A stretch of DNA of 17,540 nucleotides from IMG/VR virus record IMGVR_UViG_3300042934_000306; one strand, 5' to 3'. Origin of the DNA: a virus. Taxonomy: Duplodnaviria; Heunggongvirae; Uroviricota; Caudoviricetes. The position numbers were made by a program, and so were the translations under genes. This document shows, piece after piece, positions 3,525 to 6,819 of this stretch (the stretch's first letter is position 1; each line of letters starts with the position of its first letter). The notes under the pieces were generated by a model. It had not been told where the DNA came from and searched no databases. It worked only from the letters and a program-made list of their open reading frames with translations.

Positions 3525-4270
3525 CAAGAATCACTAAAGAGCGTATTTCAGATATTATTTCCCGTATCGAAATGTATGGTCACGGTGCTGGATACACAGC
3601 AGATGAAGTATTGGAGCTTGCCAAAATAGCTTTAGCGCCTTGCAAGGATGGTAAAGCTATGACACTGATTGACTTGTTAGTGAAGGAATTATCTAAGGGG
3701 CGTGGATGGCCTGATGGAAAAGATTTTTGCCATCTATCCATTACGATGCCAGGTAGTAGTCGCGCTACGGTTCTTTTTGGTACGCGCCATAAAAATTACC
3801 AATCATCAAAGAATTATTCCATTGATGGCATTATTTGCGATATCAGTGACCTTGATCGCAGTGCGTTTACATCGGTTGTCACTCGTGAACAGTATGAAGC
3901 AGCTCGCATAGCGTCTCAGAAAGTTAAGTCTGAAAGTAAGGCTTACAAGTTAGATTTTGAGCAATGGCTGGAACAGCAACGCGGGAAAATCGATGTGGAC
4001 TGCGGTTGTGTGTCTGCGGAAACATTCATGCACTGGTTGCGGGTAGCTTATGAGGCTGGGAACCATCCGGATTTTCCGGATAGTTCCCAACAAGCGCCCA
4101 GGAAAAGCGTAAAAACCACTCTGGAAAGAGGCTATCTTGAGGCCGCATTAAAGATTAAGCCGGGCCATACACTAGGCGTCATTGATGCCATGTTGGTTCA
4201 TGAAATGGCGAAGGCTTTATTGCCGCTGGTGGCTGATAAACATGAGGCGGACCATGCCAACGAAAGCTGA
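3521..4270 (+). CDS. hypothetical phage protein (249 aa)
   Basis: ATG 3521 with AGGA upstream and ATGA coupling to the preceding ORF; the alternative in-frame ATG at 3503 would overlap the previous gene by 22 nt. Confidence 0.6.
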   Translation: MTRITKERISDIISRIEMYGHGAGYTADEVLELAKIALAPCKDGKAMTLIDLLVKELSKGRGWPDGKDFCHLSITMPGSSRATVLFGTRHKNYQSSKNYSIDGIICDISDLDRSAFTSVVTREQYEAARIASQKVKSESKAYKLDFEQWLEQQRGKIDVDCGCVSAETFMHWLRVAYEAGNHPDFPDSSQQAPRKSVKTTLERGYLEAALKIKPGHTLGVIDAMLVHEMAKALLPLVADKHEADHANES

Positions 4271-4538
4271 GTTACAGGCGCGCATAGAGATTCTTGAAAA
4301 AGAGAATGCGAGTCTAAAAGGAATGCTGGCGCGGGCGGAAAGGGAATTATCAGGCAAATTATTGCCAGAAGAGCTGCCACCAGCAGATATACCTGATCGA
4401 GTGTCCTGGTGGATGAAGTATTTCCGTGCACCGTGGGAGGCGTTTTGGTGCTACGACCATCGCAGATGGTGTGATGAGCTTGATAGCAGTTTCCCCTATT
4501 TTGCGGAAGGGAACTCTTGCCCTGAATGTAGGAGTTAA
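4254..4538 (+). CDS. hypothetical coiled-coil protein (94 aa)
   Basis: ATG 4254 after GAGG; the track ORF from 4182 overlaps the upstream gene; heptad-like AELQARIEILEKENASLKGMLARAEREL. Confidence 0.45.
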   Translation: MPTKAELQARIEILEKENASLKGMLARAERELSGKLLPEELPPADIPDRVSWWMKYFRAPWEAFWCYDHRRWCDELDSSFPYFAEGNSCPECRS

Positions 4539-4586
4539 TGATGACCGGCGATAACGCGTTTGCACCAAAGGTGTCTCTTTAATGTA

Positions 4587-4606
4587 TACTGTATAAATGA
4601 ACAGTA
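4587..4606 (+). promoter_or_regulatory. LexA (SOS) box TACTGTATAAATGAACAGTA overlapping a TATAAA -10-like hexamer, 20 bp upstream of humD
   Basis: Exact CTGT-N8-ACAG with the flanking TA..TA of the enterobacterial consensus, read directly from the sequence. Confidence 0.8.
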
Positions 4607-4625
4607 TTATTGAGGTGAAAACGCT

Positions 4626-5015
4626 ATGGGCTTCCCTTCTCCTGCGGCGGACTATGTTGAAAGCAGAATTTCTCTTGATCAGCAACTAATCAGGCATCCA
4701 TCAGCGACATACTTCATGCGGGCGGCAGACAGCCATCACCGTGAGGGAATATTGCAGGGTGCTTTGCTGGTGGTTGATTCTTCGCTTACTCCAGTTGATG
4801 GTTCGCTGCTTGTGTGCGCTATGGAGGGTGAATATCGCATAAAGAGATACCGAAAGTATCCGCGCCAGCACCTGGAGGATTTAAGCACCGGGAAGAAAGA
4901 GGCGTTACCAGTAGATGACGATGGTTACACGGGTAGTAATGCTGTTTTTGGTGTGATCACTCATGTCATCAATGATGCCCGAAGTGGGGAGTTTGATGAT
5001 TGTCCGGTCATTTAA
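4626..5015 (+). CDS. humD: UmuD-prime-like protein (HumD-type), lacks the cleavable N-terminal tail
   Basis: Starts MGFPSPAADYVESRISLDQQLIRHPSATYF, aligning to UmuD from Gly25 (the RecA-mediated cleavage product); GAGGTGA SD; sits immediately upstream of phd-doc as in P1. Confidence 0.8.
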   Translation: MGFPSPAADYVESRISLDQQLIRHPSATYFMRAADSHHREGILQGALLVVDSSLTPVDGSLLVCAMEGEYRIKRYRKYPRQHLEDLSTGKKEALPVDDDGYTGSNAVFGVITHVINDARSGEFDDCPVI

Positions 5016-5056
5016 GCTGCAAAGTGCTGGTGCTTTATGCCTGTGAAGTTTATGAT

Positions 5057-5078
5057 TGTGTACACATAACGAGTACAC
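5057..5078 (+). promoter_or_regulatory. putative Phd/Doc operator: TGTGTACACA palindrome plus GAGTACAC half-repeat just upstream of phd
   Basis: Perfect 10-bp palindrome 5057..5066 and a related 8-mer 5071..5078 ending 10 nt before the phd ATG; matches what I recall of the P1 phd operator. Confidence 0.45.
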
Positions 5079-5087
5079 GAGGTGTTT

Positions 5088-5309
5088 ATGCAGTCCATTA
5101 ACTTCCGTACCGCGCGCGGCAACCTTTCTGAATTGCTCAACAATGTTGAAGCCGGGGAAGAGGTTGAAATCACCCGCAGAGGCCGTGAACCAGCAGTAAT
5201 TGTCAGCAAGGCTACTTTCGAAGCCTACAAAAAGGCGGCGCTGGATGCTGAATTTGCATCCCTGTTTGACACCCTGGACTCCACCAACAAGGAACTGGTT
5301 AACCGATAA
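5088..5309 (+). CDS. phd: Phd antitoxin (prevent-host-death)
   Basis: [73 protein letters not shown] is near-identical to P1 Phd as I remember it; 73 aa; stop overlaps doc ATG. Confidence 0.9.
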
Positions 5310-5689
5310 TGAGGCATATATCACCGGAAGAACTTATTGCGCTTCATGATGCGAATATAAGCCGCTACGGCGGCCTGCCGGGAATGTCAGATCCGGGTAG
5401 GGCAGAGGCCATTATCGGGAGAGTTCAGGCCAGAGTTGCCTACGAAGAGATCACCGACCTTTTCGAAGTCTCCGCAACCTACCTGGTGGCTACTGCGAGA
5501 GGGCATATATTCAATGATGCCAATAAGCGTACCGCGCTAAACAGTGCGCTGCTATTTCTACGCCGTAACGGTATACAGGTATATGATTCTCCCGTGCTGG
5601 TGGAACTTGCGGTGGGGGCTGCAACTGGTGAAATCCCCGTATCTTCAGTAGCGGAAAAACTACGTGAACTATATGGTTCCAATATTTGA
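5309..5689 (+). CDS. doc: Doc toxin (death-on-curing, Fic-fold kinase)
   Basis: [40 protein letters not shown]... matches P1 Doc; includes the [11 protein letters not shown] Fic-like motif; 126 aa. Confidence 0.9.
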
Positions 5690-5692
5690 AAA

Positions 5693-5718
5693 GAAGCCCG
5701 CTCAACCAAGCGGGCTTC
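5693..5718 (-). terminator. intrinsic terminator: perfect 10-bp stem GAAGCCCGCT/AGCGGGCTTC, 6-nt loop, between convergent doc and the minus-strand operon
   Basis: On the minus strand the hairpin is followed directly by TTTTC; it lies 7 nt after the stop of the 5725..6819 gene. Confidence 0.55.
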
Positions 5719-5724
5719 CTACTA

Positions 5725-6819
5725 TCACTCAATGATTTTTTCTGCTGTCAGCCAGCTAATTTCTTGCCTGTCTTTCGGCGGTTTTAGCATGTGGGCGTAT
5801 TCAGCGACATTCCCCCACGGAATTGTTTTTGCCCACTCAACGATAGCATTGTGATCTGCAGTGAAGAGTGGAATGGTGTGCGATTTCAACCACTCTAATG
5901 TTGTAACGCCATGTTTTTTGGCGTGGTGCTGTGCATGATGCTTGGCTATCACTCGTAATGGCATTGTCCATTCACTGCCATCAGGCATTGAAAAACGCAT
6001 TGTTTTCGGCATATCTGATTCAAGAACAGCCTCCCTAATACCAGGGAACTCACCAAGAATCATACGACGGTAGTCATCACTATTTCGCCCGCCATACCTT
6101 TCGGCAAAATGATCAAGATATTCTTGGGTAATAAATGGTGAATCCTCAGCACTCAGCTTAATGGCTTTATAGACACCACTCGGATTATCTTCAGCTAAAG
6201 CACGCCCATGATGAGAATCATAGAAAAATCCTATTTCCTCTGGTGACGGAATTGAAGTGAGCAATATGCGTGAATCACCACTAGTCATGCTTGCCCACAC
6301 AATACTGTATGCCCGATCGCTTATATGTGCGGAATCCACAATAATGAATAACAGATGGTCGGCGTAGTGACCTGCAATGCTATCTTCATAGTTAAGGCGG
6401 TAGTTACAAAAGCACATTCCCCAAAATTCATTGAACATCAGACCGCTATCACCGACCTTAAAATACTCAATGATAAAAGGTTGTTTTTTCAGTAATGCCT
6501 CCCAACATTGCCACACATATGCAACAATTCCTTTTTTGCAAGCATTTGATTTTGGATAAACAATTACTGTCCGGGAATCAGGATACATAATCGTATAAAG
6601 GGTACTAATAACAGCAAGCACTTGCGGTCGTCCGATCCCATGCGGAGTTGTGACAGTAGCTTTTGCATTATTGGGCTGTATAGCTTCAACAATTTGTTGT
6701 TGCTGGTGGCTTAAATCAATATCAAACAATTCTTTTGCTGCCAGAACCCAATTGTCTTTATATTTCTCCACCAGCGACAGCCAGCGCGGATCTTTATAAA
6801 TATTGCTCTTAGTCGCCAT
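5725..6819 (-). CDS. terminase-large-subunit (PacB-like) paralog, ATPase motifs degenerate, nuclease domain absent (365 aa)
   Basis: Start taken at ATG 6819 (MATKSNIYKDPRW...) after AAGGAAGTGG, overlapping the upstream stop. Aligns by eye to the 502-aa PacB-like protein in this window (SHQQQQI, FYDSHH, ESPF-T, GEFP blocks); Walker A is PHGIGRP rather than GHGTGKS, Walker B is IIVDSA rather than LILDEA. Confidence 0.65.
   Translation of the reverse strand: MATKSNIYKDPRWLSLVEKYKDNWVLAAKELFDIDLSHQQQQIVEAIQPNNAKATVTTPHGIGRPQVLAVISTLYTIMYPDSRTVIVYPKSNACKKGIVAYVWQCWEALLKKQPFIIEYFKVGDSGLMFNEFWGMCFCNYRLNYEDSIAGHYADHLLFIIVDSAHISDRAYSIVWASMTSGDSRILLTSIPSPEEIGFFYDSHHGRALAEDNPSGVYKAIKLSAEDSPFITQEYLDHFAERYGGRNSDDYRRMILGEFPGIREAVLESDMPKTMRFSMPDGSEWTMPLRVIAKHHAQHHAKKHGVTTLEWLKSHTIPLFTADHNAIVEWAKTIPWGNVAEYAHMLKPPKDRQEISWLTAEKIIE

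Follow-up and report, generated by a model that had tools for sequence, protein, structure and literature searches.

A LexA box-humD module and a phd-doc addiction module placed head to tail in a D6-like phage-plasmid

Can an addiction module come under SOS control through the gene that happens to stand upstream of it? This question is raised by a viral DNA sequence of 17,540 nucleotides (IMG/VR record IMGVR_UViG_3300042934_000306; the whole stretch is called the window below), in which a LexA box, the UmuD′-like gene humD, and the antitoxin and toxin genes phd and doc follow one another from position 4,587 to position 5,689. The original prediction, made from the letters of the sequence, was that SOS-driven transcripts of humD run on into phd-doc and tie the addiction genes to DNA damage. 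We find that the locus very probably joins, head to tail, two known and self-sufficient modules of the P1 family of phage-plasmids, LexA box-humD and phd-doc. The arrangement is real and was correctly identified, and it is already known as the P1-type LexA-humD plus phd-doc locus, so that it holds no new biology in itself. What is not established is only the SOS coupling proposed for the addiction module, which is structurally permitted, is not conserved outside the lineage, and may occur. The identity and anatomy of the parts, their modular distribution, the conservation of the box and the terminator-free gap were observed here, and we take LexA regulation of humD, the function of HumD and Phd/Doc autoregulation from the literature.

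The window is 99.9% identical over its full length to the Salmonella plasmid pFSIS11814474-2 (CP123702.1), and its packaging, repressor and recombinase region (pac/c1/recombinase) is 98-99% identical to phage D6. Because of these identities we assign it to a D6-like member of the P1 family of phage-plasmids. Around the locus, similarity to P1 itself is confined to positions 4552-5646, at 96-97% identity. The P1 GenBank record annotates the LexA site, humD, the "sigma 70 promoter Pphd", phd and doc in the same arrangement (AF234172.1). The two Phd operator sites are the only parts that lack an annotation there, and this pair has been described in published work. In a survey of P1-like phage-plasmids, a humD-phd-doc cluster is named and humD is described as a LexA-regulated SOS gene (PMC9603915).

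The LexA box and the humD gene

The LexA (SOS) box, TACTGTATAAATGAACAGTA, occupies positions 4587-4606, with no strand assigned, and is the sole CTGT-N8-ACAG site in the 17.5-kb window, where about 0.17 such sites are expected by chance. It matches the palindromic consensus TACTG(TA)5CAGTA at 17 of 20 positions, and none of 200 shuffles matches as well. The box had been described as perfect, which is true of its two arms, TACTGT and ACAGTA, and not of its centre, where all three mismatches lie. It does stand just upstream of humD as described, 19 nt before the ATG at 4626. In P1 the identical sequence is annotated as "LexA binding site in the regulatory region of lxr and humD" (AF234172.1), and the records of P7 and phiKO2 hold equivalent LexA-site annotations. 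P1 has the divergent gene lxr on the other side of its box; the window instead has a co-directional open reading frame (ORF) at 4254-4538 (PHROG 3797), and because of this the box can serve humD only.

We followed the box through 80 IMG/VR loci that encode HumD at 95-100% identity: in 77 of them a TACTG-N10-CAG box precedes the humD ATG by 18-19 nt, and the remaining 3 carry TGCTGT at the box position. When these loci were combined with reference phages and plasmids in a set anchored on the box (87 loci, 32 distinct upstream sequences), TACTGT and ACAG were invariant, and the eight central positions and the flanks were variable. Invariant arms around a variable centre are the pattern expected of a working LexA operator, as judged by sequence comparison. 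The box also stays with humD through at least 5 unrelated upstream contexts, among them the lxr type (P1), the hot type (RCS47, D6) and the window's own. Distant humD homologs in N15, phiKO2, HK639, pK91 and SSU5-like elements have a box 15-30 nt upstream, and so do 26 of the 46 full-length chromosomal homologs in species-representative genomes, or 28 when two CTGT-N8-TCAG variants are counted. Another 17 of these full-length homologs have no box directly upstream and are joined directly to a conserved upstream ORF. These boxless, tail-less chromosomal homologs occur in Citrobacter, Enterobacter, Atlantibacter, Dryocola and others, and represent a different operon context in which the upstream ORF, mostly ending in ...NPNGG, lies within a few nucleotides of humD.

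Over the whole window, the looser pattern CTG-N10-CAG occurs 7 times. One LexA-like site, TACTGCGTCACAGAACAGGC (1392-1411), was set aside as probably a chance occurrence, having CTGC for CTGT and a GC-rich centre. It lies between the two copies of a direct repeat, the ORF start ATGAAAAACCGTAA(G/A)GCAAA, which are found in intergenic sequence at 1262-1282 and 1435-1455, about 173 bp apart.

A candidate promoter for humD can be placed on the plus strand, with a -35 hexamer TTGCAC at 4560-4565 and a -10 hexamer TATACT at 4585-4590 that overlaps the left arm of the LexA box. At the position of the -35, the P1, pK91 and RCS47/D6 lineages have TTGCAC, TTGCAT or TTCACA, and the RCS47/D6 form, TTCACA-18-TATACT, scores 10/12 in the promoter scan. 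The spacer between the hexamers is 19 nt in the window, as it is in P1, and because this falls outside the criteria of the scan, no promoter was reported at this place in the window. A spacer of this length suggests that the humD promoter is weak. The left edge of the box reads TATACTGT in the window and nearly all relatives, and TGTACTGT in the P1 reference, giving a candidate -10 of TATACT in the window and TGTACT in P1. The P1 variant weakens its candidate -10, which might be related to the poor HumD expression reported for that phage. Between the upstream gene row and humD there is only a weak, 5-bp hairpin, GCACCAAAGGTGT then CTCTTTAATG, at 4562-4574 of the plus strand, where it overlaps the candidate -35. 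P1 shares this hairpin, the SSU5-like PhiR41_1 has a better-paired form of it (GGTGC), and it could act as a weak insulator against transcription arriving from the gene row.

The gene itself (4626-5015, plus strand) encodes a UmuD′-like protein of 129 aa without the N-terminal tail. HumD matches the Pfam domain Peptidase_S24 (PF00717) with E = 5.7e-9 and 36.1 bits against a cut-off of 23.3 bits, the family PHROG 811 ("UmuD-like") from profile position 21, and the crystallised UmuD′ (1UMU) with E = 2.4e-23. It is identical to P1 HumD at 128 of 129 residues. P1 HumD is said to be UmuD′-sized, to lack a umuC partner, to complement UmuD′ and to be poorly expressed, as McLenigan et al. reportedly found in 1999. 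In the alignment, Gly2 of HumD falls on residue 1 of the crystallised UmuD′ and on Gly25 of full-length UmuD. Residue 2 of HumD is thus the start of UmuD′, and the protein is therefore encoded in its already processed form, which bears out what had been proposed from the sequence. The note on humD in the P1 record reads "functionally complements E. coli UmuD′" (AF234172.1).

The window resembles the E. coli umuDC operon in having a LexA box before a UmuD-family gene. Unlike umuDC, humD has no umuC partner, and its product has the post-cleavage N-terminus and an extra C-terminal tail, SGEFDDCPV. The conserved tail of the HumD family, INDARSGEFDDCPV, is encoded at 4968-5012 (HumD aa 115-129), and within it G121, E122, F123, D124, D125 and P127 are invariant from P1 to N15, phiKO2 and HK639. 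UmuD′ has no counterpart of this tail, the alignment to 1UMU stopping at aa 118. The HumD family also differs from UmuD in that the catalytic Ser/Lys pair is not conserved: the equivalent of UmuD Ser60 is Ser in the window, P1 and pK91 and Thr in N15, phiKO2 and HK639, and the equivalent of Lys97 is Met in HK639. Judging from these alignments, selection does not seem to act on the self-cleavage pair, as would suit a protein for which processing is never required.

In an undamaged cell, a LexA dimer bound at 4587-4606 would cover part of the candidate -10, TATACT, of a weak promoter and so keep humD off. DNA damage would lead to RecA-stimulated self-cleavage of LexA and to transcription of humD, and HumD, made directly in the UmuD′ form, would then partner the SOS-induced UmuC of the host without RecA-mediated processing.

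The phd-doc cassette and its distribution

Downstream of humD, phd (5088-5309, plus strand) encodes an antitoxin of 73 aa that matches the Pfam family PhdYeFM_antitox (PF02604) above its cut-off, with E = 2.8e-13, and is identical to P1 Phd (PDB 3HRY) at 72 of 73 residues. The toxin gene doc (5309-5689, plus strand) encodes a protein of 126 aa with the Fic fold, which matches Fic/DOC (PF02661) above the cut-off and has an intact Fic-type motif, HIFNDANKR, of the form HxFx(D/N)(A/G)NKR. Doc matches P1 Doc (PDB 3K33) with E = 6e-71 and about 89% identical residues; the C-terminal third differs from that of P1 and represents a variant allele. The antitoxin gene comes first, and the phd stop codon (5307-5309) overlaps the doc ATG (5309-5311) by 1 nt. 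Pfam domains, identity to the P1 proteins and the P1 GenBank annotation all agree on the names humD, phd and doc, which had been given to these genes at the outset.

The gap between humD and phd (5016-5087) is exactly 72 bp long, the length first read from it, and holds the control region of the addiction operon. Pphd, its sigma-70 promoter (5028-5056, plus strand; -35 at 5028-5033, -10 TATGAT at 5051-5056), was placed by transferring the P1 annotation through a gapless alignment of the gap; the -10 is TATAAT in P1. Just after the -10 follows the Phd/Doc operator (5057-5078, no strand assigned), which consists of a perfect palindrome, TGTGTACACA, at 5057-5066 and an imperfect site, GAGTACAC, at 5071-5078, the two being 13 bp apart. 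A Phd-operator-like palindrome had been noticed in the gap, and the whole operator stretch proves to be identical to P1. The inverted-repeat finder missed the 10-bp palindrome, which was confirmed by a pattern search. A single Phd octamer alone is not statistically unusual, and the site is meaningful because it is identical to the P1 operator and has a second site beside it. In P1, the binding of Phd dimers to two neighbouring palindromic operator sites is cooperative, and these dimers autoregulate phd-doc, with Doc forming a bridge between dimers on the two sites (PMC4803016, PMC13034048). The phd-doc genes of the window would likewise be run by their own sigma-70 promoter and autoregulated by Phd/Doc complexes on the two adjacent sites. 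An Rfam search of the window gave no match above any gathering score; matches below threshold to Leu and Trp leaders (5688-5760, minus strand) were rejected, being merely the terminator hairpin beyond doc.

Across plasmids, humD with its box was matched in 575 (560 of them full-length), phd-doc with its leader in 1241 (1233 full-length) and the contiguous humD-phd junction in 454, a row for which a full-length count does not apply. Thus 454 of the 560 full-length humD copies (about 81%) have the junction and about 19% do not, and adjacent humD is found in 454 of the 1233 phd-doc plasmids (about 37%), leaving about 63% without it. The breakpoints coincide: plasmids with phd-doc alone match the window from 5012, at the humD stop codon, onward, and copies with humD alone lose the match at about 5014. 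For P1, the GenBank record notes that from 5 nt before the humD stop onward the DNA is 98% identical to conjugative-plasmid sequence (AF234172.1). Of the 80 IMG/VR loci, 72 have this junction with an unchanged 72-bp gap, and pK91, with a divergent humD of 78% DNA identity, keeps the junction as well. Phage D6 has a 423-bp ORF (orf109) between humD and phd, and neither phd nor doc lies within 1.2 kb of any of 80 humD homologs in species-representative genomes. Linkage is therefore not conserved wherever either partner occurs. Since neither module always has the other beside it, the two move independently of each other, and their standing side by side is characteristic of the P1 lineage.

The humD-phd junction and possible read-through

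No terminator was found between humD and phd by the pattern scan, and RNA folding of the gap was no better than that of shuffles (z = +0.16 and +0.86), in agreement with the original prediction, which had seen no obvious terminator there. D6 has no terminator between humD and phd either. Relatives in which phd-doc does not follow humD, namely NZ_CP149812.1, PhiR41_1, N15 and phiKO2, have a strong hairpin and T-run directly 3′ of the humD stop. The hairpin in NZ_CP149812.1, a D6-like plasmid with the replicon type of CP123702.1, has a folding energy of -24.7 kcal/mol (z = -5.2); it was missed by the terminator scan and confirmed by folding. In the window, a GC-rich hairpin at 5693-5718 (no strand assigned, found by folding and by the scan) is common to doc and the converging gene beyond it. 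Its energy is -19.1 kcal/mol (z = -6.7) on the plus strand and -23.3 kcal/mol on the minus strand, and the scan reports a canonical terminator on the minus strand; the plus strand has the hairpin without a T-run.

This hairpin and the converging gene beyond it are homologous to those that follow humD in NZ_CP149812.1. Because the hairpin that ends the humD unit there stands after doc here, phd-doc lies inside the humD transcription unit, before its terminator; the cassette would have entered after the humD stop codon and ahead of the terminator hairpin. With phd-doc in this position and the gap terminator-free, humD transcripts plausibly enter phd-doc, adding a small LexA-dependent component to its transcription, with main control staying with the autoregulated promoter. 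We hold some read-through to be slightly the likelier outcome; that it has a physiological role we regard as improbable. Its effect is probably small because the humD promoter looks weak, an occupied Phd/Doc operator lies in the path of the polymerase, and antitoxin and toxin would be raised together. The claim of SOS read-through thus stands in its structural premise, a terminator-free gap with the hairpin moved beyond doc, and is weakened by a linkage that is not conserved and by phd-doc cassettes that stand alone in about 63% of cases.

Several points weigh against this account of the locus. The hexamers of the humD promoter are guessed, and the 19-nt spacer is longer than the promoter scan accepts. 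In the P1 annotation, the predicted promoter PhumD lies within lxr, about 480 bp further upstream, in a region that is absent from the window, and transcripts of humD could also come from the long row of co-directional genes that precedes it. Finally, the read-through is deduced from the absence of a terminator alone, and operator-bound Phd/Doc or Rho could stop the polymerase.

This last point leads to a possible, though rather unlikely, alternative in which the two modules are insulated: a Phd/Doc roadblock, Rho or RNA processing would halt humD transcripts at the phd operator or short of it, and phd-doc would be independent of LexA. The operator sites at 5057-5078 lie directly in the path of a polymerase coming from humD and are normally occupied by the cooperative repressor complex (PMC4803016), and the weak look of the humD promoter points the same way. 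However, the gap contains no structured element (z = +0.86) and, at 72 nt after a translated gene, leaves little room for Rho. Protein roadblocks, moreover, are usually leaky. The likelihoods given here to insulation and to read-through are not meant to add up, since the two explanations share the identity of the modules and differ only at the junction.

At the other extreme, humD-phd-doc could be a functional SOS-inducible operon in which LexA cleavage meaningfully raises Phd/Doc, so that addiction is tuned to damage, for example by compensating faster Phd turnover or by priming growth arrest. The terminator-free gap and the displacement of the humD terminator to after doc are what such an operon would have, and its junction is common, in 81% of full-length humD plasmid copies and in nine tenths of the IMG/VR loci, and persistent, as the divergent humD of pK91 shows. 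We nevertheless consider it a doubtful explanation. The frequent junction can be explained by shared ancestry alone, and phd-doc with the same leader stands by itself in the majority of its plasmid occurrences. D6 interrupts the pair with orf109, and none of the 80 humD homologs outside the P1 lineage adjoins phd-doc. Additionally, toxin and antitoxin would be raised together at the same ratio, and because co-transcription raises both proteins no net release of toxin is expected. We found neither SOS control of phd-doc nor a test of the coupling in the literature open to search or reading, where the nearest data are measurements of humD and phd mRNA after thermal lytic induction, not after SOS induction (Ronayne et al. 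2016). The idea that the palindrome resembling a LexA box arose by chance, or is a relic, and regulates nothing deserves almost no credence, given the shuffles, the invariant arms with variable centre and flanks among 32 distinct upstream sequences, the boxes before distant homologs in unrelated phages, and the LexA-site annotations in P1, P7 and phiKO2.

Relation to known systems and neighbouring genes

The closest known counterpart of the two joined modules is P1 (AF234172.1, 87.4-88.6 kb), which shares the sequence of the box, its 19-nt distance from humD, the 72-bp gap with Pphd and both operators, and the phd-doc overlap. It differs, apart from lxr and the two -10 hexamers, in the last third of doc, which is of the other allele, and in what follows doc, which is pdcA/pdcB in P1 and a converging gene with a shared hairpin in the window. 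Phage D6 (MF356679.1) and NZ_CP149812.1 have the LexA box, humD and the downstream converging gene in common with the window; D6 differs by orf109, and NZ_CP149812.1 differs in having no phd-doc and a terminator directly after humD. The stand-alone phd-doc cassettes of IncF and other plasmids have the same genes and the same 72-bp leader with promoter and operators, and differ from the window in having neither humD nor a LexA box upstream. In one example, the IncF plasmid NZ_CP029580.1, the cassette lies beside the hsdM gene of a type I restriction-modification system.

The E. coli chromosome encodes LexA-regulated toxin-antitoxin loci, dinJ-yafQ, yafNO, tisB/istR and symE, in which the LexA box is on the locus's own promoter. 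If read-through occurs, phd-doc of the window would resemble them in having an SOS-dependent component of transcription. It would differ in that the LexA box would act only indirectly, by way of the gene before it, and would add to an autoregulated promoter that works on its own.

The converging gene beyond doc (5725-6819, minus strand) encodes 364 aa and belongs to PHROG 5902, a family with unknown function; it is weakly similar to part of terminase large subunits (PHROG 2, E = 3e-9). On the other side of the locus, the ORF at 4254-4538 (plus strand), upstream of the LexA box, is named "antitoxin PHD" in the annotation of CP123702.1. It has no match to the Pfam family Phd/YefM and matches PHROG 3797, which has no known function, and the name looks like an annotation error. 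Compared with CP123702.1, the window lacks 318 bp inside a gene with a DUF551 domain (at about 2226), and the two are otherwise collinear.

With humD behind a conserved LexA box and phd-doc behind its own autoregulated promoter, what the junction could add is a response of the second module to damage. It would be surprising, on our reading, if damage transiently bypassed Phd/Doc autoregulation and raised both proteins, making the P1-type addiction module SOS-responsive. If it does, the SOS response may buffer the loss of Phd in stress or alter the outcome of plasmid loss from damaged cells. Should read-through be substantial, the locus would be a mobile toxin-antitoxin cassette that gains stress control purely by its insertion site, with a bearing on plasmid stability under DNA-damaging antibiotics.

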